Below are positions 15,078-29,696 of a stretch of 29,696 bases of DNA, in pieces. The stretch comes from Phreatobacteraceae bacterium (GTDB lineage: Bacteria; Pseudomonadota; Alphaproteobacteria; Rhizobiales; JBDHTH01). The notes below the pieces were generated by a model. It was not told the origin of the DNA. It ran no database searches and saw only the letters and a list, made by a program, of their open reading frames with translations. Location: contig JBDHTH010000001.1 of the NCBI GenBank assembly GCA_039808545.1, forward strand, positions 1 through 29,696, written 5' to 3'. Each line of letters starts with the position of its first letter. The first letter of the stretch is position 1. A program made the position numbers and the translations under genes.

Positions 15078-16280
15078 ATGCCGGAAATCGCCGATCGACT
15101 GAAGAAGGTCAAAGTCTCGGCCTCGGCCGCGATGACCGACAAGGCGCGGGAGCTGCGCGCCCAGGGCGTGAAGATCGTCAGCCTGTCGTCGGGCGAGCCG
15201 GACTTTCCGACGCCGCCGCATGCGGTGGAGGCGGCGCACCAGGCGGCGCTCGCGGGCGACACGAAATATCCGCCGCAGCCCGGCACGCCGGCCCTGCGCG
15301 CCGCCATCCAGCGCAAGTTCAAGCGCGATAACGGCCTCGACTATGCACTCGACGAGATCCTCGTCGCCAATGGCGGCAAGCAGGTGATCTTCAACGCGCT
15401 GCTCGCGACCTGCAATCCGGGCGACGAGGTGGTCATTCCAGCGCCCGGCTGGATCACCTATGCGGATATCGCCCTCCTCGCCGAGGCGACGCCCGTGCCG
15501 GTGCCGTGCCCGGAGAACAACGGCTTCAAGCTGCGCCCGGCCGATCTCGAGGCCGCGATCACCGCGAAGACCAAATGGCTGATCCTGAATTTCCCGAACA
15601 ACCCGACGGGCGCCGCCTGCACGCGGGCCGAGATGCGCGAGATCGCGGACGTCATGCTCCGCCATCCCCATGTCTGGATCCTCACGGACGATATCTACGA
15701 GCACCTCGTCTATGGCGGCTTCGAGTTCTGCACGATCGCCGAGGTCGAGCCGGCGCTGAAGGGTCGCGTGCTGACCGTCAATGGCGTGTCCAAGGCCTAC
15801 GCGATGACCGGCTGGCGGGTCGGCTATTGCGGCGGCCCGAAACCGCTGATCGCGGCCATGAACAACGTGCACGGCCAGGCGACCGGCGGCATCACGACGG
15901 TGAGCCAGGCGGCGGCCGTCGCGGCGCTCGACGGGCCGCAGGACCTTCTCGCCGAGCGCGCCGCCATCTACCAGGCACGGCGCGACATGGTGGTGGAGCG
16001 GCTGAACCGCATTCCCGGCATCACCTGCCACAAGCCGGAAGGCGCCTTTTACGTCTTCCCGAACATCGCGGGATGTATCGGCAAGACGAGCCGCGGCGGA
16101 CGGCTGATCGCCAACGACACGGATTTCGTGACGGCCCTCCTTGCCGAGCAGCATGTCGCGACCGTGCAGGGAGCGGCCTATGGCATGAGCCCCTATTTCC
16201 GGATCTCCTATGCGACCGACATGGAAACGCTCGAGGAGGGGTGCGACCGCATCGCGGCCTTCTGCGCCGGGCTGACGTGA
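15078..16280 (+). CDS. PLP-dependent class I aminotransferase (aspartate aminotransferase-like)
   Basis: GEPDF, NFPNNPTG, DDIYEH and PLP-lysine motif SKAYAMTGWRVGY. Start taken as MPEIADRL. Confidence 0.93.
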   Translation: MPEIADRLKKVKVSASAAMTDKARELRAQGVKIVSLSSGEPDFPTPPHAVEAAHQAALAGDTKYPPQPGTPALRAAIQRKFKRDNGLDYALDEILVANGGKQVIFNALLATCNPGDEVVIPAPGWITYADIALLAEATPVPVPCPENNGFKLRPADLEAAITAKTKWLILNFPNNPTGAACTRAEMREIADVMLRHPHVWILTDDIYEHLVYGGFEFCTIAEVEPALKGRVLTVNGVSKAYAMTGWRVGYCGGPKPLIAAMNNVHGQATGGITTVSQAAAVAALDGPQDLLAERAAIYQARRDMVVERLNRIPGITCHKPEGAFYVFPNIAGCIGKTSRGGRLIANDTDFVTALLAEQHVATVQGAAYGMSPYFRISYATDMETLEEGCDRIAAFCAGLT

Positions 16281-16300
16281 GGCCGACACCGCGCCGCGGG

Positions 16301-16317
16301 CATAAGCGCTGCAAATG
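16301..16317 (+). promoter_or_regulatory. LysR/Nac-like box upstream of the ABC transporter operon
   Basis: CATAAG-CGCTGCA-AATG has identical flanks to the box at 14978-14994. Confidence 0.6.
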
Positions 16318-16336
16318 ACCCTAAACGAAGATCGTC

Positions 16337-16366
16337 TTGGCGTAGCGGCGTAACGGCTCGTAAGCT
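16337..16366 (+). promoter_or_regulatory. Candidate sigma70-type promoter for the ABC/pxp operon
   Basis: TTGGCG-N18-TAAGCT. This would place the LysR box centre about 64 nt upstream of the inferred start site. Confidence 0.35.
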
Positions 16367-16534
16367 TTGTTCCATGGTGGCGGTCGGTATCGGCTCCGGG
16401 CAATGCAGCCCCCTCACGCCCGCGCACCGGAAAATGGCAGAGGTCGGCGAAACTCCATCGCGGCTGCGTGAGCGAGGCTGCGCGCCGCGCCATGGCCGCA
16501 GGAAAAAACGGGGGATGAGCGTGCATATCGTAAC

Positions 16535-17467
16535 ATGTTCGACCCGGCAAGGATTCGGCGCGTGACCGAGAACGTCGAGGAGATGCCGCGCCGCCGGGCC
16601 TCGATTCCGCCGTTTCGTCTCTCGGCGAAATATCTCGCCCTGCCGATGCTGGCGTTTCTCTCGTATTTCTTTTTCTATCCGGCGCTCAGCCTGCTGTTCT
16701 CCAGCGTCCAGACCCAGAACAGCCAAGGCATCGTCGGCCCGCCCTATACGCTCTCCCACTATGTTCGGCTGATCGACGTCGACCTCTATGCGCGGGTCTT
16801 CTGGAACACGCTGCGCATGAGCGTGATCACCTCGCTGCTCGCCACCCTCATCGCCTATCCGGTCGCCATCGTCATGGTGAAGAGCCGGCCGATGGTGACG
16901 CGGATCATCACCTTGATCGTCATCGCGCCGCTGATCGTCTCGGTGGTCGTGCGCGGCTACGGCTGGCAGCTCGTGCTGATGAACGGCCCGAAGGGCATGC
17001 TGAACTGGATCCTGATGACGCTCGGCATCACCGACGGGCCGATCTCGGTCCTCTATACGGAAGCCGCGGTCATCATCGGCTCGCTGCACGTGTTTTTCCC
17101 GATGATGGTGCTGCCGCTCGCCTCCGCGCTCGGCAAGATCGACCCGAACCTGGAGGACGCGGCGCGCATGCTCGGCGCGCCCTGGTGGAAGGTCTTCCTT
17201 AGGATCACGCTGCCCCTGAGCCTGCCGGGCTTCGTGGCCGGCTTCACCATCGTGTTCTCGCTGACGGCCGGTTCCTTCGTGATCCCGGCGATCCTCGGCG
17301 GCCCCGCCGCGCTGATGCTCGGCAACCTGATCGAGCAGCAGATCTTCGTCGTCTACGACTGGCCGTTCGGGGCCGCCATCGCGATGATCCTGGTCGCGGT
17401 CGTCTTCGCCGTGAACGGCGTCTCGATGTGGCTGCTCGAAGGCCGCCGTTTCAAGAGGGCCGAGTGA
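16535..17467 (+). CDS. ABC transporter permease, PotB-like
   Basis: Hydrophobic protein with EAA loop LEDAARMLGA and SAGSFVIP-type/WPFGAA motifs. Start is uncertain (16535, GTG 16562 or ATG 16583). Confidence 0.9.
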   Translation: MFDPARIRRVTENVEEMPRRRASIPPFRLSAKYLALPMLAFLSYFFFYPALSLLFSSVQTQNSQGIVGPPYTLSHYVRLIDVDLYARVFWNTLRMSVITSLLATLIAYPVAIVMVKSRPMVTRIITLIVIAPLIVSVVVRGYGWQLVLMNGPKGMLNWILMTLGITDGPISVLYTEAAVIIGSLHVFFPMMVLPLASALGKIDPNLEDAARMLGAPWWKVFLRITLPLSLPGFVAGFTIVFSLTAGSFVIPAILGGPAALMLGNLIEQQIFVVYDWPFGAAIAMILVAVVFAVNGVSMWLLEGRRFKRAE

Positions 17468-20501: not shown

Positions 20502-21212
20502 ATGCTGGATCGACATTCACGCCAGACCGATATCGCCGTGCCGCTCGCTGCCGTGCCGCCCGGCGCGCCGAAGATCAGCTTCATCGGCACGCATGCGGTG
20601 CTCGTGGAGGCGCCCGGCGATCTCTGCCTGGAGCAGCAGAACCGCATCTGGACGCTCGCCGAGCTGGTCTCGGCCTGGCCGAATGTCGCGGAGGCGGTGC
20701 CGGGGGTCACCAACCTCATGCTGGTGCTGAAAGCCCCGCTCGAGGATGTCGACGCCTTCGTCGCGACGCTGCAGGAAACCTGGCGCCGCCTGCCGCGCCG
20801 CGAGCGCAAGGGCAAGCTGATCGAGATCCCGGTGATCTATGGCGGCGAGCTCGGCTTCGACCTGCCGGCCGTCGCGCGGCGCGCCGGCCTGTCGGAGCGC
20901 GAGGTGATCCGCATCCATGCCGAGCGCGCCTACACGGTCTTCGCGATCGCGAGCTCGCCGGGCTTCGGCTATCTCTCGGGCCTTGATCCGCGCATCTTCA
21001 TGCCGCGCAAGACCGTGCCGTCGCTGAACATGCGCGCCGGCTCGGTGACGATCGGCGGCATGCAGACCGGCGTTGCGGTGTTGACGAGCCCGAATGGCTG
21101 GAACGCCATCGGCTGGGCCGAGCAGCCGATGTTCGATCCGGGTAGCGAGACCCCCTCGCTGATGTCGCCCGGCGACGAGGTGCGCTTCCGCATCGATCGG
21201 ATCGAGCTGTGA
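20502..21212 (+). CDS. pxpB: 5-oxoprolinase subunit B-like protein (second copy)
   Basis: EAVPG, IPVIYGG, SPGFGYLSG, PR...P...RAGSVTIGG.QTG and SPNGWNAIG. Confidence 0.9.
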   Translation: MLDRHSRQTDIAVPLAAVPPGAPKISFIGTHAVLVEAPGDLCLEQQNRIWTLAELVSAWPNVAEAVPGVTNLMLVLKAPLEDVDAFVATLQETWRRLPRRERKGKLIEIPVIYGGELGFDLPAVARRAGLSEREVIRIHAERAYTVFAIASSPGFGYLSGLDPRIFMPRKTVPSLNMRAGSVTIGGMQTGVAVLTSPNGWNAIGWAEQPMFDPGSETPSLMSPGDEVRFRIDRIEL

Positions 21213-22183
21213 TCGAGATCCTGACGAGTCACGCTTTCAACACGATCCAGGATCGCGGCCGCTTCGGCGCGCGGCGCCTCGGCGTCAGCACCTCCGGCGT
21301 CATGGACCCGCTGGCGCTCGCGGCCGGCAACCTGATGCTCGGCAATGCCGAGGATGCGGCCGCGATCGAGGTGCAGACCTTTCCGTTCCGCCTGCGTTTC
21401 ACGGCGACGACGCGTTTCGCGGTGACGGGCGCGGATTGCAGCGCGCGCCTCGCGGACCGCGCTCTGCCGCCCTGCTGGTGCGGCCGGGCGGCGGCCGGCG
21501 ACGTGCTGGCGCTCGGCATGCCGAAGCGGGGCTCGCGCGCCTATGTCGCGGTGCCGGGAGGCATCGCGGTGCCGCCCGTGCTCGGCTCGCGCAGCACGCA
21601 TCTGCGCGCCGGCTTCGGCGGCCATGAGGGGCGCGCGATCGCCGCCGGCGATCGGCTGGCGGTCGGCGCCGATGACGGGATAGAGGCGCCGCGCGCCGAT
21701 TTCGGCGTCATGCCGGCCGATGTCGCCATTCCGGCCGAGCCGCTCGAACCGACCTCCCTCGCGATCCGTGTCCTACGGGCCGGCGAATACGATTTCTTCC
21801 CGGCCGAGATGCAGCGCCTCTTCTGGGAAACGCCCTGGAGGATCAGCCTGCAGAGCGACCGCACCGGCTACCGGCTGGCGGGCGCCAAGCTGCTCCTGCC
21901 CAGGCCCGTGGAGATGCGCTCGCACGGCGTCGTCTCGGGTGTCGTGCAGGTTCCGCCGGCCGGCGAGCCGATCATCCAGATGAGCGACGCCAATACGGCC
22001 GGCGGCTATCCGAAGATGGCGGCCGTGATCGAGGCCGATCTATGGCGCCTCGGCCAAGCCGGGCCAGGCACGCTGATCCGCTTCGTCGACGTGTCCTATC
22101 GGGACGCGGTCGCCGCGATGGAGCCGGTCGCGGCCTATGTCGCGCGCATTGCGCGAACCGCCGCGCTTTACCGGACGCTTTGA
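21209..22183 (+). CDS. pxpC: 5-oxoprolinase subunit C-like protein (second copy)
   Basis: GTGA overlap with pxpB. Motifs TIQDRGR, VLGSRST, SDRTGYRL and DANTAGGYPK. Confidence 0.9.
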   Translation: MIEILTSHAFNTIQDRGRFGARRLGVSTSGVMDPLALAAGNLMLGNAEDAAAIEVQTFPFRLRFTATTRFAVTGADCSARLADRALPPCWCGRAAAGDVLALGMPKRGSRAYVAVPGGIAVPPVLGSRSTHLRAGFGGHEGRAIAAGDRLAVGADDGIEAPRADFGVMPADVAIPAEPLEPTSLAIRVLRAGEYDFFPAEMQRLFWETPWRISLQSDRTGYRLAGAKLLLPRPVEMRSHGVVSGVVQVPPAGEPIIQMSDANTAGGYPKMAAVIEADLWRLGQAGPGTLIRFVDVSYRDAVAAMEPVAAYVARIARTAALYRTL

Positions 22184-22215
22184 ACGGGCGCGCCGCCGCC
22201 CAGGAGGACAGCAAG

Positions 22216-22995
22216 ATGAAGATCGACGTGAACTCGGACATGGGCGAGGGCTTCGGCCCCTACCGCATCGGCGACGACGAGGCGCTGATGGATGTCGTCT
22301 CCTCGGCCAACGTCGCCTGCGGCTTCCACGCCGGCGACCCGATCATCATGGATCGCACGGTGCGCATGGCGAAGGCGCGCGGCGTCGGCGTCGGCGCCCA
22401 TCCCGGCCTGCCGGACCTGCTGGGCTTCGGCCGGCGCGTGATCCAGATGGACGCGGCCGAGATCGAGAAGCACATGGTCTACCAGATCGGCGCGCTGCAG
22501 GCGGTCGCCGCCAATGTGGGCCACCGCGTGACGCATGTCAGCTTCCACGCCGCGATGGGCAACATGGTCAATGCCGATCCCGACATGGCGCGCGTCGTCG
22601 CCAAGGCGATCGCCAGGATCGATCGCGACCTCATCGTCTTCTCGATGCCTGACCAGCCGATCGTCGCGGCGGCCGAAGAAGCCGGCCTGCGGACGCTGAC
22701 GCTGTTCCTCGCGGACCGCGCCTATGACGCGACCGGCAATCTGGTGCCCCGCAAGGTCGCCAATTCGGTGATCACCGCGCCCGAGGCGGTCGCGGCCCGC
22801 GTCAAGCGGTTCCTGGACGACGGCACGGTCGAGACGATCGACGGCCAGTCTATCAAGGTGAAGGCCCGCTCGATCCTCGTTCACAGCGACACGCCCGGCG
22901 CGGTGGACCTCGCCCGCACCGTAAGGCGCGTCATCGAGCAGGGCGGGGGAAAGGTCGTCGCGGCGACGGAGCTGGCCATGGCTACGGCAGCGTAG
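22216..22995 (+). CDS. pxpA: LamB/YcsF family protein (5-oxoprolinase subunit A-like)
   Basis: AGGAGG RBS. Motifs DVNSDMGE, SANVACGFHAGDP, HPGLPD..GFGRR, ADRAY and HSDTPGA. Confidence 0.92.
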   Translation: MKIDVNSDMGEGFGPYRIGDDEALMDVVSSANVACGFHAGDPIIMDRTVRMAKARGVGVGAHPGLPDLLGFGRRVIQMDAAEIEKHMVYQIGALQAVAANVGHRVTHVSFHAAMGNMVNADPDMARVVAKAIARIDRDLIVFSMPDQPIVAAAEEAGLRTLTLFLADRAYDATGNLVPRKVANSVITAPEAVAARVKRFLDDGTVETIDGQSIKVKARSILVHSDTPGAVDLARTVRRVIEQGGGKVVAATELAMATAA

Positions 22996-23131: not shown

Positions 23132-24178
23132 TCATAGCGTCGCGAGCCGGGCATTGGAGACCGTCGGCCCGTAGGCGTCGTGGAGCGCCTGCTTTTTCTC
23201 CAAAGCGGCGATCACGTCATTCGAGAAGTCGGCCTTGTACATGGTCTGCATGCGGCTGAGGCCGCCCGGCGTGAATACGTTGATCTCCAGCAGCTTGCGG
23301 CCGACGATGTCGAGGCCGACCAGGAACATGCCGTCGGCGACGAGCTTCGGTCTGACCAGCTCGGCGAGCGCCAGCATCTCGTCCGTAACCTTCACCTTGC
23401 GCGCCGTGCCGGCCGCATGGATGTTGGAGCGCAGATCGCCCTTGGCGGGCACGCGCTGGAAGGCCGCGTAGCTGTCGCCGCTGCGCAGCGGCACGCCGTT
23501 CATCAGGAAGAGGCGTGTATCGCCAGCCTTCGCCTCCGGCATATAGGCTTGCGCGATCAGATAGCCTTCTTCGCTCGCCGCCTCGAAGATCTGGTTGAGG
23601 TTGAGGTCGTCCGGCTTGGCGACGTGGAAGACGCCCTTGCCGCCGGATCCCTGGAGCGGCTTGACGATGCAGCCCTTCGGCTGCTCGGCGATGAAGGCGC
23701 GGATGGCGCCGAGCGAGCGCGAGATCAGCGTGGCGGGCCGCGCCGCCTCCGGAAAGGCCTGAAGGTAGAGCTTGTTTTGCGCCTGCGCCAACCCATCGGG
23801 GTCGTTCACCACGAGCACGCCGCGATCGGCGGCCAGACGCGCGAACATGATGCCGGCCGTCGCGGCCCAGGGGCGTTCGGTGGCGTCGACCGATGGGTCG
23901 TTGCGCAGGAACAGCACGTCGAGATCGCCGCATTCGAAAGTGTCCTTGCGGCCGGCGGCCGCCTGCAAAGCGGCGAACATCTTCTCGGCACTGCGGTAGT
24001 TTCCATCCGGCACCGCGACGGCCTCGACCGAAAGGCTGTTGTCGGCACGCAGGATGAAGTCTCCAGGCTCCATGTAGACGACCGAATGGCCGCGCTTGAT
24101 GGCCGCGAAGGCGAGGCTCGTCGTCGTAAAGCCCGGCGTCTCGGTCGCGATCGAGTTCACGAAGAGGGCTATGCGCAT
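23132..24178 (-). CDS. Glutathione synthetase (GshB)-like ATP-grasp ligase, divergent
   Basis: AGGAG RBS before ATG 24178. Collinear with prokaryotic GshB motifs: DVLFLRNDP, VKPLQGSGG, AQAYMP....GDTR, RSNIHAAG and VGLDIVG..LLEINVFTPGG. Confidence 0.88.
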   Translation of the reverse strand: MRIALFVNSIATETPGFTTTSLAFAAIKRGHSVVYMEPGDFILRADNSLSVEAVAVPDGNYRSAEKMFAALQAAAGRKDTFECGDLDVLFLRNDPSVDATERPWAATAGIMFARLAADRGVLVVNDPDGLAQAQNKLYLQAFPEAARPATLISRSLGAIRAFIAEQPKGCIVKPLQGSGGKGVFHVAKPDDLNLNQIFEAASEEGYLIAQAYMPEAKAGDTRLFLMNGVPLRSGDSYAAFQRVPAKGDLRSNIHAAGTARKVKVTDEMLALAELVRPKLVADGMFLVGLDIVGRKLLEINVFTPGGLSRMQTMYKADFSNDVIAALEKKQALHDAYGPTVSNARLATL

Positions 24179-24189
24179 CGCGCGCTCCT

Positions 24190-26055
24190 TCAGTTGGAGA
24201 TCATGTCGAGCGGCTCGATGCCGGCGATCGCCTTCTTCAGGCGCGGCCGTGCCGCCTCGGCGGACAGGAAGGCGGGCTCGAGCTGCGGCGGCCGGAGGAG
24301 GTCGCGGGCGCGCAGCTCCTCGATCGCATCGAAATGCGTCGCCGATATCTTGCCGACCCAGAAGGGCGTCAGGCTGCCGCCGCGCCGCAGATGCGCGAGA
24401 ACCTGCGAGACGCCGCGCAGGTAAATCGCGTCCTTGGCGAGGCCGCCGCCGCGATAAACCCTGAGTGCGATATTGAACGCCGTCCGCGCGCTCAATGCGT
24501 AGCTGTCGCACAGCATGGCGAAGGTCTCCACGAACGCCGCGCCCTCCAGCATTGCGTGGGAGGCGATGACGCGGGCCGCGAGCAGGCGCAGGCGCTGCGC
24601 GGTCATGCCGCCGACCAGGTATTCGGCGAGGACCGCGAGACCCTCCTGCGTCGCCTCATAGCCCGCAAGGCCGCTGCGCAGGATCGTCAAGCCCTGCACG
24701 GCGCCGTTGAAATAGGTGAGGAGATGGACGCCGATCTCGTGGCTGAGCAGGGCTGGCAGACGATCGCGGGCAACCTGTGTGTCGCGGGCGATCAGCAGGC
24801 GCCCGTTCGAGACGAGCAGGCCCGGCGGCAGGTCGCTGCGGATTTCCACGGATGCGTCGAAATCGCGAAAGACGCTGCGATAGCCCGCGATCATCTCGCG
24901 CGCCGCCGCCGCCACTGTCTCGGCGCCGAGCGAAGGCCCCGACGCGGCCCCGTCTGCGACGGCCGCCTTCAGGATGGTTTCCGCCCTTGCTTTCAGCGAG
25001 GGTTCGACGCCGCCGTAGAGCGCCCGTCCGAGCGGCGCGAAGCGGGGCGTCTCGCGCGCAGCGAGCAGCGAGAGCTGAAGGTCGAGCTCCTGCTGCTTCT
25101 CGGAGAGCAGGTCGCGGAGCAGCGGGTCCTCCAGGTGATCGAGCGAGACGGCGTAGAGCTTGCGTTTCTCGGCGCCGACCTCGATCTCGAGCGGGCGGTA
25201 GAGGAAGGTCGGCGCGGCCTTGAAGTCGTGGGCCTTGAACTCCGCCCAGGCAGCCTCCGAATTGATCGGGGTGAGCGCCAGCAGGAAATCGAAGGAGGAC
25301 GCGACCTTGTCGAGGCCGCGATCGGCGCGGCCGACAGCCTCGATGAAGGCCCGCCGGCCGAGGGCGCGGTGGCTGGGCGGTGCCGCCACTTTCGATGCCT
25401 TGAGGAAAGCGCCGACCGCTTGCAGACCTGAATCGATCATGTTGGCGACGACCTGGTCGCGCAGGCCCGGATAGATGGTCTTTCCACCGGCCGCCTTGTA
25501 GATCGGGGCAAAGCGTACCCAGAGCCGCGCAATGTCCCTCCGAAGGTGACTTCTCGGCGGCGGCAGATCGCAGACGCGCGGCGTCCGGTATCGGGACTTG
25601 CGGCTCGCCGCCGCTTCCGAGAATCGCTTCAGCGCGGCGCGTTCCGGCGCGGACTCGCCGCTCGCCAGCGCGATCTCGAAAGGCGGCAGGAAGGGCGCAT
25701 CGGGAGTGAGAAACCGATCTTCCGCGAGCTCGTCGACATCGAGCAGCAGGAAGGCTCCGGTGCGCTCGGCGAGGCGAGGCGCGAGATGCGCCACAACGGC
25801 TTCGGCCAAGCGCGTATCTGCTGCCGTCAGATAGGCGGCGTTCGCCGACACGACATCGAAAGCCGCGCTATTGTCGATCCCGACCTTGACCCAGAGGAAC
25901 GGCAGCGGACGGTCCATATGCAGGCGGCTGCCGTCGGGAAGATCGAGACGGATCGGCCGTCCCTGACCGAGGAGCTCGTCGAGCGCGGCGGCGATGGTGG
26001 CCATCGCGGCATCGATCGTCGTCGCGGCAGGCCGCTCGGCGCGCTTCGGCCTCAT
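24190..26055 (-). CDS. QEGLA-motif / DUF1704 (MATCAP-like) zinc metallopeptidase-domain protein with N-terminal extension
   Basis: ATG 26055 overlaps the upstream stop (ATGA); 621 aa. HEIGVH at 24724-24741, TQEGLA (QEGLA at 24634-24648) and KDAIYLRG. Confidence 0.87.
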   Translation of the reverse strand: MRPKRAERPAATTIDAAMATIAAALDELLGQGRPIRLDLPDGSRLHMDRPLPFLWVKVGIDNSAAFDVVSANAAYLTAADTRLAEAVVAHLAPRLAERTGAFLLLDVDELAEDRFLTPDAPFLPPFEIALASGESAPERAALKRFSEAAASRKSRYRTPRVCDLPPPRSHLRRDIARLWVRFAPIYKAAGGKTIYPGLRDQVVANMIDSGLQAVGAFLKASKVAAPPSHRALGRRAFIEAVGRADRGLDKVASSFDFLLALTPINSEAAWAEFKAHDFKAAPTFLYRPLEIEVGAEKRKLYAVSLDHLEDPLLRDLLSEKQQELDLQLSLLAARETPRFAPLGRALYGGVEPSLKARAETILKAAVADGAASGPSLGAETVAAAAREMIAGYRSVFRDFDASVEIRSDLPPGLLVSNGRLLIARDTQVARDRLPALLSHEIGVHLLTYFNGAVQGLTILRSGLAGYEATQEGLAVLAEYLVGGMTAQRLRLLAARVIASHAMLEGAAFVETFAMLCDSYALSARTAFNIALRVYRGGGLAKDAIYLRGVSQVLAHLRRGGSLTPFWVGKISATHFDAIEELRARDLLRPPQLEPAFLSAEAARPRLKKAIAGIEPLDMISN

Positions 26056-26852
26056 CGCATCGCTTTCAGGGCATCCTCGAGCAGCGGGATGGTCGAGGCG
26101 AGGAGATGCCGCAGTTCCGCGACGGCGGATCGGTCGGGCCGGCCCGTCCATTCGTCCATGAAGATCTTCTTGAATTCCACCGCGATGGCGCAGCCGGTCT
26201 CGGGAAACCGCTCGTGGATGAAGCGGGTCTGCTCGCCCCGTCCCTGGAACGAGACGTTCTCCCCGACAGCCAGGGGCCGTCCGGCCAATCGCCCCTTGGC
26301 GAGCGCTTCGAGAAACCGGTCGACGACGGGCGCCCATCGGTCGCGATCCATCGAACTCGTGCCGATATTGATGTCGGGCGCCTGGGCGACAGGCGTGGGG
26401 GCGGCATCCGGCCCGTCCCGCCGATGATTGTAGCTATGCACGTCGATGACGACGAACTTCCCGTGCCGTCGTGCAATCTCCGATAATGTGCTGTGCAACG
26501 CCTCATAGAAGGCCGTGTGGAAAGCGAGCGACCGCGCGACGATCGCCTCGTCCGGCGGCTCGCGCCAGACCCGCAAACCCCAGGACTGCTCCGGCTTCAA
26601 ATAGATGGCTGCATCGCGCGCCCGGTTCAGGTCGACCTCGAAGCGCGACCGATGTGCCACGATCCGCGTCGGAAAATTCGCGATCAGCTCGGCGGTGAAC
26701 GGATCTTCCTCGCGCTGCCGCTGCCCGGCATCGAGCGCCATAAGGGCCTCGCATTCCGGCCGGACGTCCCCGCCGTCGTGAATCGCCGTGCCGACGATGG
26801 GCGAGGCGCCTCGCACGATCGTCCAGCCCTCGTCGCGATGAATGCCAGTCAT
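26052..26852 (-). CDS. N-formylglutamate amidohydrolase family protein
   Basis: AIHDG, REEDPFT, SRFEVDLNR, DVHSYN, ENVSFQG and EFKK motifs. Start is MTGIH (26852), or possibly 26915. Confidence 0.87.
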   Translation of the reverse strand: MTGIHRDEGWTIVRGASPIVGTAIHDGGDVRPECEALMALDAGQRQREEDPFTAELIANFPTRIVAHRSRFEVDLNRARDAAIYLKPEQSWGLRVWREPPDEAIVARSLAFHTAFYEALHSTLSEIARRHGKFVVIDVHSYNHRRDGPDAAPTPVAQAPDINIGTSSMDRDRWAPVVDRFLEALAKGRLAGRPLAVGENVSFQGRGEQTRFIHERFPETGCAIAVEFKKIFMDEWTGRPDRSAVAELRHLLASTIPLLEDALKAMR

Positions 26853-27125: not shown

Positions 27126-27974
27126 ATGCGGCTCGGTCTGGCCGAGATCGATGGCGTGCGCGCTCTGGTCGCGCCGAAGGGAGAGGGCATCGTGCGGCTC
27201 GGCGGCGACCTGCCGGCCGACCCCCTTGCAATCCTTACGGATCCCGCGCTGCGTCGGCGCGCCGAGGCCGCCATCGCCGCCGCGCCGGTCGAGGCGAAGA
27301 CCGTCCGGCTGCTGCCGCCGCTCGCCGCCTTCGGCAAGATCGTCTGCGTCGGCCTGAACTATGCCGACCACGCCGCCGAAAGCCCCTATGACCGGCCGAA
27401 ATTCCCGGTCTTCTTCCTGCGTGTCGACACCGGCGTGATCGGTCCGAACGACCCGATCATCCGCCCTCAGGTCTCCGACCATCTCGATTTCGAGGCCGAG
27501 ATGGCGATCGTCCTCGGCAAGGGCGGGCGTCGCATCGCGGAGGCCGAGGCGCTTTCCCATGTCGCAGCCTACACCGTCTTCAACGACGGCTCGATCCGCG
27601 ACTGGCAGTTCAAGGGCCCGCAATGGACGCTGGGCAAGAACTTCGACAACACCGCGCCGATCGGTCCGTTCCTGGTCTCGGCCGACGAGGTGCCGGCCGG
27701 CGGCAAGGGCCTGAGGATCACGACCCGCCTCAACGGCGCGACCGTCCAGGACGCCAACACGGACGACCTGCTGTTTCCGATCCCGGAGCTGATCGCCCGC
27801 ATCTCCGAGGCGATGACGCTGAAGACGGGCGACGTGATCGTCACCGGCACACCGGCCGGCGTCGGCTTCGCGCGCAAGCCGCCGCTGTTCATGAAGGCCG
27901 GCGATGTCTGCGAGGTCGAGCTCGAAGGCGTGGGCAAGCTCGTCAACCCGATCGTCGACGAGGTGGTTGCATGA
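27126..27974 (+). CDS. Fumarylacetoacetate (FAA) hydrolase family protein
   Basis: KIVCVGLNY.DH, DFEAE, NDGSIRDWQ, GKNFD and GDVIVTGTPAGVG. Confidence 0.93.
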   Translation: MRLGLAEIDGVRALVAPKGEGIVRLGGDLPADPLAILTDPALRRRAEAAIAAAPVEAKTVRLLPPLAAFGKIVCVGLNYADHAAESPYDRPKFPVFFLRVDTGVIGPNDPIIRPQVSDHLDFEAEMAIVLGKGGRRIAEAEALSHVAAYTVFNDGSIRDWQFKGPQWTLGKNFDNTAPIGPFLVSADEVPAGGKGLRITTRLNGATVQDANTDDLLFPIPELIARISEAMTLKTGDVIVTGTPAGVGFARKPPLFMKAGDVCEVELEGVGKLVNPIVDEVVA

Positions 27975-29696
27975 GCGCCGCGCCGCTGCGCATCGCCGCC
28001 GATGTCGGCGGCACGTTCACGGATGTCGCCGTCTTCGACGAGGCGACCGGCGCGATCCGGCTCGGCAAGACGCTGACGACGCCCGCGAGCCTGATCGCCG
28101 GCATGGCCCATGGGGTGGAGAAGGCGGAGGCGCGCTTCGCCGATGCCGGCCTCTTCCTGCACGGCACGACGGTCGCGATCAACGCGCTGCTCGAGCGCAA
28201 GGGCGCGAAGACCGCGCTCGTCACCACGAAGGGCTTCCGCGACATCTACGAGATCGGCCGCATCAACCGGCCCGAAGCCTACAACCTCTTCTTCAAGAAG
28301 CACCGGCCGCTGGTCGAGCGCGCGTTGCGCATCGAGGTCGATGAGCGCATGGACGCCGCCGGGGAGGTGCTGCGGCCCCTCGACGACGCCGAGATCGCCC
28401 GCGTCGCCGAGGCGCTGAGGGCGGAGAAGGTCGACGCGGTCGCCGTCCTCTTCCTGCATTCCTATCGCAACCCGGCGCATGAGATCCGCGCCCGCGACCT
28501 TCTGGCGAAGCTGCTGCCGGACGTCTTCGTCACGGCTTCGCATGAGCTCTCTCAAGAGTATCGCGAGTTCGAGCGCTCCTCCACGGTCGCTGCCAACGCC
28601 TATATCGGCCCCACCGTCACGCGCTACCTGGCCGAAGCCGAACAGGTGCTGGACGGGCTCGACTTTGCCGGCAAATTCCTCATCGTCCAGTCGACCGGCG
28701 GCCTCTACGACGCCGCGCAGGCGAGCCGGGAGTGCATCCGAATGCTCGAATCCGGCCCCGCCGCCGGTGTTATCGGCACGCGGGCGCTATGCGCCGAGAT
28801 CGGGTTGAAGAGTGCCATCGCGTTCGACATGGGCGGCACCACCGCCAAGGCCGGCGTCATCCTCGATGGCACCGAGCTGACCGCTAACCAGGTGATGGTC
28901 GGCGGCTATGCCGAGGGGCTGCCGATCCAGATCCCGATGATCGATATCGAGGAGGTCGGCACCGGCGGCGGTTCTATCGCGCGGCTTGTCCACGGGCAGA
29001 TGCGCGTCGGGCCGGAGAGCGCCGGCGCCGTGCCCGGACCGGTCTGCTACGGTGGCGGGGGTACGGAGCCGACCGTCACGGACGCCAACCTGCTGCTCGG
29101 CCGCCTCGCGCCCGACCTGTTCCTCGGCGGCGAGATGGCGCTCGATGTCGAAGGGGCCGAAAGGGCGATGCGCGAGAAGGTCGCTGATCGCCTCGGTCTC
29201 ACCGTCGCGGAAGCGGCCGACGGCGTCATCCGCATCGCGGTCACCCAGATGGCCAATGTCGTGAAGCGCGTGACCACGGCGCGCGGCCTCGACGCGCGCG
29301 ACTTCGCGATGGTCGCCTATGGCGGGGCCGGGCCGCTCCACGCCGTTCTCGTGGCGCGCGAGCTGCAGATCCCGCGCGTCGTCATCCCGAACGCGCCCGG
29401 CCATTTCTCGGCCTATGGCATGCTGGTCTCGGACCTGCGCCGCGACTTCGTCCGAACCCTCTTTGCCCGCCTTGCGGAGGCGCCCTTCGACACGTTCGAC
29501 GCGATCTTCACCGAAATGGAGGCCAAGGGCCGCGCGGAGATCGGCGCCGCCGCGCCGGGCCGGCTCGACATCGCGGTCAAATACGCCGCCGACATGCGCT
29601 ATGTCGGGCAGGAGCACGCGGTGACGGTGGAGGTGCCGGAGGCGGCGTTCCGCGACCGCGACGTCGCCGCGATCAAGGCGGCCTTCGACGCCGTCC
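27971..29696 (+). CDS. Hydantoinase/oxoprolinase A subunit (HyuA/N-methylhydantoinase A-like), 3'-truncated by the window end
   Basis: ATGA overlap. MSAAPLRIAADVGGTFTD, HGTTVAINALL, ESGPAAG, DMGGTTAK, VGTGGGS, EPTVTDA and AYGGAGPLHA. There is no stop before the end, so it is absent from the ORF track. Confidence 0.93.
   Translation, partial: MSAAPLRIAADVGGTFTDVAVFDEATGAIRLGKTLTTPASLIAGMAHGVEKAEARFADAGLFLHGTTVAINALLERKGAKTALVTTKGFRDIYEIGRINRPEAYNLFFKKHRPLVERALRIEVDERMDAAGEVLRPLDDAEIARVAEALRAEKVDAVAVLFLHSYRNPAHEIRARDLLAKLLPDVFVTASHELSQEYREFERSSTVAANAYIGPTVTRYLAEAEQVLDGLDFAGKFLIVQSTGGLYDAAQASRECIRMLESGPAAGVIGTRALCAEIGLKSAIAFDMGGTTAKAGVILDGTELTANQVMVGGYAEGLPIQIPMIDIEEVGTGGGSIARLVHGQMRVGPESAGAVPGPVCYGGGGTEPTVTDANLLLGRLAPDLFLGGEMALDVEGAERAMREKVADRLGLTVAEAADGVIRIAVTQMANVVKRVTTARGLDARDFAMVAYGGAGPLHAVLVARELQIPRVVIPNAPGHFSAYGMLVSDLRRDFVRTLFARLAEAPFDTFDAIFTEMEAKGRAEIGAAAPGRLDIAVKYAADMRYVGQEHAVTVEVPEAAFRDRDVAAIKAAFDAV

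Follow-up and report, generated by a model that had tools for sequence, protein, structure and literature searches.

An operon in a Phreatobacteraceae bacterium (Rhizobiales) raises the question of why a ligase resembling glutathione synthetase (GshB) should be encoded together with two hydrolases, one of the MATCAP (DUF1704/QEGLA) metallopeptidase family and one of the N-formylglutamate amidohydrolase (FGase) family. The operon lies on the minus strand, at positions 23,132 to 26,852 of a stretch of 29,696 nucleotides (contig JBDHTH010000001.1 of assembly GCA_039808545.1, positions 1 to 29,696), which we refer to as the window. A preliminary description of the window had called these three genes, and all three calls are confirmed (Table 1). 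Going by database names alone ('glutathione synthetase', 'N-formylglutamate amidohydrolase'), there would be nothing special here, i.e., gshB and hutG would lie by chance beside a DUF1704 gene. We find instead that the trio is a real, widely conserved module, whose function we then consider.

The neighborhood survey proposed in the preliminary description showed that the three genes are conserved together, and that two of them also occur fused. It covered 25 Rhizobiales loci, which were found by a search with the window MATCAP-like protein (P0002) and represent close relatives only, and, for wider sampling, an even set of 401 Pseudomonadota genomes; 50 of these carried a MATCAP-family gene, and 40 such loci were fetched and searched with the window proteins. 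The order FGase-MATCAP-ligase was found at all 25 Rhizobiales loci (Mesorhizobium, Aminobacter, Neomesorhizobium, Devosia and Shinella). Across the 401 genomes, every one of the 15 genes over the cut-off of the ligase model NF009110 (in 13 genomes) adjoined a MATCAP gene, and there was a wide gap in score between the module ligases (436-488 bits) and the next-best matches (≤241 bits). A profile built from the module FGases gave 16 matches in the same genomes, all with E ≤3e-68 and none weaker down to 1e-15; 13 were in a module, while the other three were at contig edges or were extra copies. Thus, the three subfamilies share one patchy distribution, being present in about 3% of the sampled genomes and in at least nine families. 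In the window's own order, just 1 of 60 genomes has any MATCAP gene.

The 40 MATCAP loci fell into five groups. Seven had a long form like that of the window, with the ligase adjacent in all seven and the FGase also present in six. At six others, the ligase was followed by a single protein of 661-703 amino acids (typically about 662), consisting of an FGase and then a MATCAP domain, as seen with Pfam in all three that were scanned and by tblastn in all six. One locus (L057 in our numbering) had an orphan long form, four had short relatives of the module clade that also stood alone, and the remaining 22 had short (about 430 amino acids) stand-alone genes. A metagenomic protein of 843 amino acids (P0184) carries an FGase and a window-type long MATCAP protein in one chain (FGase-pseudoFGase-MATCAP), with the ligase following it, and on one rearranged contig (L079) the order is FGase, ligase, inverted aminotransferase and long MATCAP. 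That these genes have been fused or reordered with none of them lost points strongly to a single function.

The 22 short MATCAP-family genes (L030-L038, L040-L045, L047, L051 and L065-L069) are a separate stand-alone clade. They had the top Pfam scores (350-462 bits), and neither this ligase subfamily nor a module-type FGase was found within 8 kb of them; about 2 kb from one of them (L034), there was a weak match to ATP-grasp. The Pseudomonas protein PA3697 is probably a member of this clade. One genome (G186, 90% complete with 3% contamination) has three copies of the MATCAP-ligase pair, on contigs C16, C47 and C283 (L063 and L064). At L063, there is a 1.3-kb gap without an FGase at the place where relatives carry one.

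Is the ligase simply gshB? It does resemble E. coli GshB (1gsa; E = 1.5e-34) in its fold and two-domain build, and Pfam matched it to GSH-S_ATP (167.5 bits) and GSH-S_N (50.5 bits). When aligned with GshB of E. coli and four other proteobacterial GshBs, the module ligases retained the equivalents of the catalytic lysine, arginine, aspartate, glutamate and asparagine residues (R86, K125, K160, R210, R225, R233, N235, D273, E281 and N283), whose roles we take to be those in the GshB literature, and they also kept the flexible lid loop (equivalent to P227-G240). However, the window ligase was below both GshB equivalog cut-offs (TIGR01380, 196.2 bits versus 299.05; NF003573, 210.8 bits versus 272). 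It passed that of NF009110 (PRK12458; 442.1 bits versus 408) over its full length (residues 1-348), and thus belongs to a separate subfamily that was always beside a MATCAP gene. Ligases of the window type also differ from GshB in having YTTT in place of the N-terminal, substrate-side DSS/DST motif, three insertions (after the DPS motif, before R225 and near residue 60), and a C-terminal extension of about 30 residues.

Canonical glutathione genes are present elsewhere. The assembly of the window genome is 69% complete, with Mesorhizobium and Aminobacter containing its closest homologues. On contig C5, the genome has a better GSH-S_ATP gene (16117-16632; 228 bits, versus 169.5 bits for the module ligase), and on contig C37 a GCS2-type gshA (glutamate-cysteine ligase). 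In four of five other module-bearing genomes, a canonical gshB over the TIGR01380 cut-off was found away from the module, the module ligases there scoring 181-248 bits; the exception, G066, has the module and no gene over that cut-off. Because canonical gshB and gshA lie elsewhere in the genome, the module ligase is not the housekeeping gshB, and the simple outcome allowed for in the preliminary description, i.e., that the ATP-grasp protein is gshB, was not borne out in this computational comparison.

The extreme C-terminus of the ligase (23135-23155 in the window) ends in N-x-x-(L/M)-(A/N)-T-L, a motif that is strongly conserved when the FGase is separately encoded (L005-L029, L048, L058-L061, L063, L064 and L079, in alpha- and betaproteobacteria and one metagenome contig, with 45-76% overall identity). 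It is absent from ligases whose partner hydrolases are fused. The carboxypeptidase, or its pseudo-FGase domain, may dock on this tail.

The resemblance to GshB also allows a different function, in which the ligase would extend gamma-Glu-Cys or another gamma-glutamyl dipeptide with a residue other than glycine, and the hydrolases would recycle the resulting tripeptide stepwise. GshB is by far the nearest characterized family, the module ligases share R86, R210, R225, R233 and the lid loop with it, and the gshA of the genome could supply gamma-Glu-Cys. In addition, the window module is between PxpABC and a hydantoinase/oxoprolinase gene, i.e., among genes of 5-oxoproline metabolism. However, these flanks were conserved at none of 65 other loci, G066 has the module without a gene over the canonical gshB cut-off, the window type has YTTT in place of DSS/DST as well as several insertions, and no gamma-glutamyl enzyme (GGT or GshA) accompanies the module. 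We therefore regard a glutathione analogue as distinctly unlikely.

The FGase protein is a member of its family both by profile (PF05013, 94.9 bits with a cut-off of 28.9) and by its conserved metal and catalytic motifs. Invariant among 14 module FGases were H25, EEDP (48-51), SR (69-70), DLNR (74-77), D137, H139, Y141, N142, R145, E226 and KK (228-229), which include the metal and catalytic motifs H25, EEDP, DLNR and D137-x-H139. It shares the Pfam family and these motifs with HutG, but with the hutG equivalog model TIGR02017 it scored 25 bits, far below the cut-off of 278.75. By these sequence comparisons, it belongs to a distinct, module-specific subfamily and is not hutG, contrary to the other simple outcome considered earlier. 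As the preliminary description had noted, neither hut genes nor gshA lie nearby, at least among the ten flanking genes scanned. With both the ligase and the FGase under their equivalog cut-offs, canonical gshB and gshA elsewhere, and strict co-occurrence of three subfamilies of which two were found fused, we consider a chance juxtaposition of gshB and hutG next to impossible.

The catalytic domain of the MATCAP-like protein is matched along its length by PF08014 (303.5 bits, cut-off 27) and by the 'QEGLA' model TIGR02421 (341.6 bits, just over the cut-off of 338.65). The HExxxH motif, which is HEIGVH in the window and aligns with HEIGTH of human MATCAP, and the downstream glutamate are intact, and H439, E440, H444, Q470 and E471 were invariant in 74 homologues. 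By analogy with gluzincin chemistry, the glutamate of the QEGLA motif is presumed to be the third zinc ligand. The catalytically dead mutant of TMCP1 is E281A (PMC10499314). An AlphaFold2 (AF2) model of the whole protein had a predicted local distance difference test (pLDDT) score of 94, and its best matches in the PDB by Foldseek were human MATCAP (7z5g/7z6s; probability 1.0, target template modeling (TM) score 0.69-0.71). Profile, motif and fold agree on membership of the MATCAP family.

What is the N-terminal part of this protein? Pfam gave no match in residues 1-250, and when the N-terminal domain was compared with FGase by plain BLASTP, no significant similarity emerged (E = 0.055 and 3.0). 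However, hhalign matched the domain to the module FGases with a probability of 94% (E = 1.4e-7) using 13 sequences, and 97% (E = 7.9e-11) using 53. An AF2 model of the domain alone had a pLDDT of 94.8, and Foldseek matched it to Amidase_3 enzymes, an M14-like carboxypeptidase, the FGase 2q7s (probability 0.98) and aspartoacylase. Its kinship with FGase is thus visible by profile and fold comparison, and not by BLASTP. The domain is without the segment containing H25 and EEDP, and at the position aligned to H139, it has D or W, so that D-x-H is replaced. In the 662-residue fusions, its place is occupied by an active FGase domain. From sequence and model together, the N-terminal 230 residues or so appear to be a degenerate FGase-like domain from which the FGase metal and catalytic motifs are missing. 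It reads as a dead copy of FGase, probably retained as a structural or binding domain.

The coordinates of these features are shown in Table 1. The translational coupling described previously was reproduced: the stop codon of the FGase gene and the start codon of the MATCAP gene share ATGA at 26055-26052, and the stop codon TGA of the MATCAP gene (24192-24190) is separated by an 11-nucleotide gap from the ATG of the ligase gene at 24178. The start of the FGase gene is ambiguous, with ATG 26852 agreeing with the homologue alignment and ATG 26915 giving the longest open reading frame. Third-position guanine-plus-cytosine (GC) content of the three genes was 0.82-0.88, like that of the adjacent genes. 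The genes on either side of the operon are a convergent one, whose end is at 22995, and a divergent one, which begins at 27126. A scan for promoter and terminator consensus sequences found none on the operon strand, such a scan being uninformative at the 68% GC of the window.

Table 1. Positions in the window of the three module genes and of the domains, motifs and spacer within the operon
Feature	Position	Strand	Details
FGase-family amidohydrolase gene (P0001)	26055..26852	-	266 amino acids from ATG 26852; PF05013
Long-form MATCAP/DUF1704/QEGLA metallopeptidase gene (P0002)	24190..26055 (coding 26055-24193)	-	621 amino acids plus stop; PF08014, TIGR02421
Predicted degenerate FGase-like N-terminal domain of MATCAP protein	25360..26004	-	Residues about 18-232; hhalign, AF2, Foldseek
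MATCAP catalytic (gluzincin) domain	24226..25323	-	Residues about 245-610; Pfam and NCBIfam envelopes
HEIGVH (HExxxH) zinc/catalytic motif	24724..24741	-	From translation; invariant in homologues
QEGLA motif	24634..24648	-	From translation; Q470 and E471 invariant
11-nucleotide spacer aggagcgcgcg	24179..24189	-	AGGAG, Shine-Dalgarno-like; MATCAP stop to ligase start
GshB-like ATP-grasp ligase gene (P0003)	23132..24178 (coding 24178-23135)	-	348 amino acids plus stop; NF009110

What might such a set of enzymes do? We see about an even chance that this is a cytoplasmic enzyme module forming and breaking an amide bond at the carboxylate end of a short acidic peptide or oligo-glutamate, adjusting the pool of glutamate and peptide under osmotic or ionic stress. 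To our knowledge, every enzyme of the GshB/RimK branch that has been characterized joins an amino acid to the terminal carboxylate of a peptide. The substrate for which FGase is named is an N-acyl-glutamate, and AstE/AspA-type deacylases cleave N-acyl acidic amino acids. Enzymes of the MATCAP/TMCP group cleave off C-terminal Tyr and Glu and also trim polyglutamate chains (PMC10499314). Because of these family chemistries, the simplest scheme would be that the ligase and the two hydrolases act on the same acidic peptide, the hydrolases taking substrates of successively smaller size. The GshB-like ligase would activate the terminal carboxylate as an acyl phosphate and add an amino acid; the MATCAP-like zinc carboxypeptidase would take off C-terminal residues singly; and the FGase-like amidohydrolase would split the last small N-acyl-amino-acid or dipeptide, which the carboxypeptidase cannot take. 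The direction assigned to each reaction is that expected from the chemistry of its family. That the residue is of the glutamate (acidic) type, that the substrate is small and free rather than the tail of a folded protein, and that the role is osmotic, are guesses.

The reading as a whole draws on these family chemistries, on low-salt induction in Photobacterium, and on ion-channel neighbors. When Photobacterium damselae was compared in 1% and 3% NaCl, a 'glutathione synthase' (RS17020) was up 38-fold and a 660-residue 'QEGLA protein' (RS17025) was up 27-fold, while a DUF413 gene was up 9-fold at low salt (PMC10308900). The induced pair has the fused-type architecture. Our literature searches found no paper characterizing the module, and these transcriptome tables were the one item on it that they yielded.

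The ion-channel neighbors were found at several loci. At L063, an MscS-family (MscK-like, 1046 amino acids) channel gene and a CorA-like gene were beside the module, and CorA-like genes were also beside it at L059 and L060. In three metagenome contigs, the 843-residue triple fusion directly followed a KhtT/TrkA_C gene and an Na_H_Exchanger gene, i.e., a Kef-type K+ antiporter (L075:435-7217). The orphan long MATCAP gene at L057 (6896-10920), which is without a ligase, directly followed a gene for an AstE/AspA-type deacylase, with genes for CNNM and CitMHS/TrkA_C transporters beside it; the deacylase looks like an analogous replacement of the FGase. At L058 (3779-6252), genes for an RloC-like protein (ATPgrasp_ST) and an RloB-like protein (a 7TM region fused to an inactive transglutaminase) were about 650 bases from the module ligase. 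This genome is betaproteobacterial or gammaproteobacterial, and it has two ATP-grasp systems side by side.

The scheme resembles known systems in which an ATP-grasp ligase is paired with a cognate trimming hydrolase. In the tubulin cycle, TTL/TTLL ligases are opposed by MATCAP1/TMCP1 and MATCAP2/TMCP2 (KIAA0895L and KIAA0895), and the pairing of an ATP-grasp ligase with a MATCAP-family HExxxH gluzincin is the same as in the module; the window protein matches human MATCAP in sequence as well as in fold (target TM about 0.7). Bacteria, however, have no tubulin tail. The module ligase is of the GshB type with no TTL domain (a Pfam scan of the ligase listed GSH-S, RimK and other ATP-grasp families, and no TTL family), the module genes are operonic and sometimes fused, and there is an obligatory third part, the FGase-like hydrolase or domain.

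The RimK/RimB and RloABC systems of Pseudomonas and E. coli are a bacterial precedent for co-encoding an ATP-grasp ligase with a reversing protease. RimK/RimB add and remove glutamates, acting on glutamate tails and on free poly-alpha-glutamate, and cells under hypo-osmotic stress require the related Rlo system (PMC12239564). However, the window ligase fell short of both RimK models (64.4 bits with the family model TIGR00768, cut-off 143.4; 26.8 bits with PRK10446, cut-off 331). In addition, the module hydrolases are zinc enzymes rather than retropepsins, and a Pfam scan of the trio and flanking genes revealed no retropepsin gene in the operon. Pairings of this general kind, in which an ATP-grasp ligase has trimming hydrolases of its own, are known, but this combination and the pseudo-FGase domain are not known from earlier work.

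These parallels bring in a protein substrate as the first alternative to a small peptide: the ligase would extend the C-terminus of some widely conserved protein, the MATCAP-like peptidase would trim it, and the FGase would clear the fragments. The MATCAP-family members characterized so far act on protein C-terminal tails, and RimK/RimB on ribosomal protein S6, like TTL/MATCAP on tubulin, provide the precedents. A housekeeping target would need no dedicated substrate gene, and the minimal unit of the module is a ligase plus one fused hydrolase. Against this, the ligase keeps the GshB-type lid loop, which in GshB closes over small substrates, and the obligatory FGase-type enzyme acts on very small N-acyl amino acids. 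Furthermore, no candidate substrate gene was conserved with the module across lineages at the loci examined, and at 10 of the 17 module-bearing loci there was an adjacent LysR-type regulator, suggesting a small-molecule signal or inducer. We judge a protein tail unlikely, while keeping it in view. The preliminary description had left the choice between a writer/eraser system and a glutathione-like cycle; the functional coupling of a ligase with two hydrolases holds up on the co-occurrence and the fusions, and the evidence on the substrate leans mildly toward a small acidic peptide.

The small DUF413/MaoP-like gene of the gammaproteobacterial fused-type loci (L050, L054, L055 and L056) is upstream of the ligase together with a LysR (HdfR-like) gene. 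Three of the four small proteins have an acidic tail, and P. damselae has the same arrangement (RS17010-RS17015). This protein was considered as a general substrate and rejected, since it occurs only at gammaproteobacterial fused-type loci, as part of an hdfR-maoP pair.

On one side of the operon in the window are pxpB-pxpC-pxpA (20502-22995, convergent; of the 5-oxoprolinase type), and on the other (27126-29695) are an FAA-hydrolase-family gene (27126-27974, divergent) and then a hydantoinase/oxoprolinase A gene. A link between these genes and the module was rejected, since by tblastn none was adjacent to it in the 25 Rhizobiales or the 40 other loci. They are local neighbors only, although their theme fits glutamate chemistry.

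An ABC importer and an aminotransferase, along with PxpABC and the FAA-hydrolase-family gene, give the module catabolic surroundings in the window, and these bear on a further alternative, a one-way catabolic or salvage route for an imported or damage-derived compound, in which the three enzymes would work one after another and the hydrolases would not cleave the product of the ligase. Such a route would avoid a futile cycle, and the LysR genes at many loci would fit substrate-induced catabolism. However, no transporter or further catabolic enzyme was conserved with the trio, and there is no obvious chemical logic in combining an ATP-consuming amide ligase with two amide hydrolases for this purpose. 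We think a route of this kind improbable.

Returning to the short acidic peptide or oligo-glutamate, several points weigh against it. The specificity of the ligase is not readable from its sequence, and its closest characterized relative, GshB, adds glycine, and not glutamate, to gamma-Glu-Cys. Co-expression of the ligase with opposing hydrolases would create a futile cycle unless it were regulated. The low-salt induction was in one species with the fused architecture, and the ion-channel neighbors, an observation at individual loci, were absent from the window and from the 25 Rhizobiales loci. A structure prediction for the FGase in complex with the full-length MATCAP protein scored 0.00, which is not evidence either way. 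Finally, no experiment on any member of the module was found in the literature.

A more specific version of the oligo-glutamate idea, which we regard as quite unlikely, is that of an 'osmolyte capacitor.' Glutamate is the main counter-ion of K+. On a change in osmolarity or ion content, the ligase would condense glutamate into short alpha-oligoglutamates, from which the hydrolases would later release it, so that there would be fewer osmotically active particles without loss of carbon or nitrogen. On the same view, the module would be the ancestral bacterial counterpart of the eukaryotic ligase/MATCAP system of tail editing.

If the reading in terms of a short acidic peptide is correct, the annotations 'glutathione synthetase,' 'flavohemoglobin expression-modulating protein' and 'N-formylglutamate amidohydrolase' mislabel a widespread bacterial module. 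The second of these, an NCBI name, traces to PA3697 and the fhp promoter (work cited in PMC8070244). The practical benefit would be immediate: in the transcriptome literature, the ligase has already been mistaken for GshB (PMC10308900). From the natural fusions and the pseudo-FGase domain, it is clear which proteins to assay together. The module would be a cycle of ATP-driven peptide-bond making and trimming, giving bacterial homologues of MATCAP their first biochemical role. It would also be a prokaryotic counterpart to the enzymes of tubulin tyrosination and glutamylation, and perhaps a new mechanism by which cells adapt to osmotic or ionic conditions.

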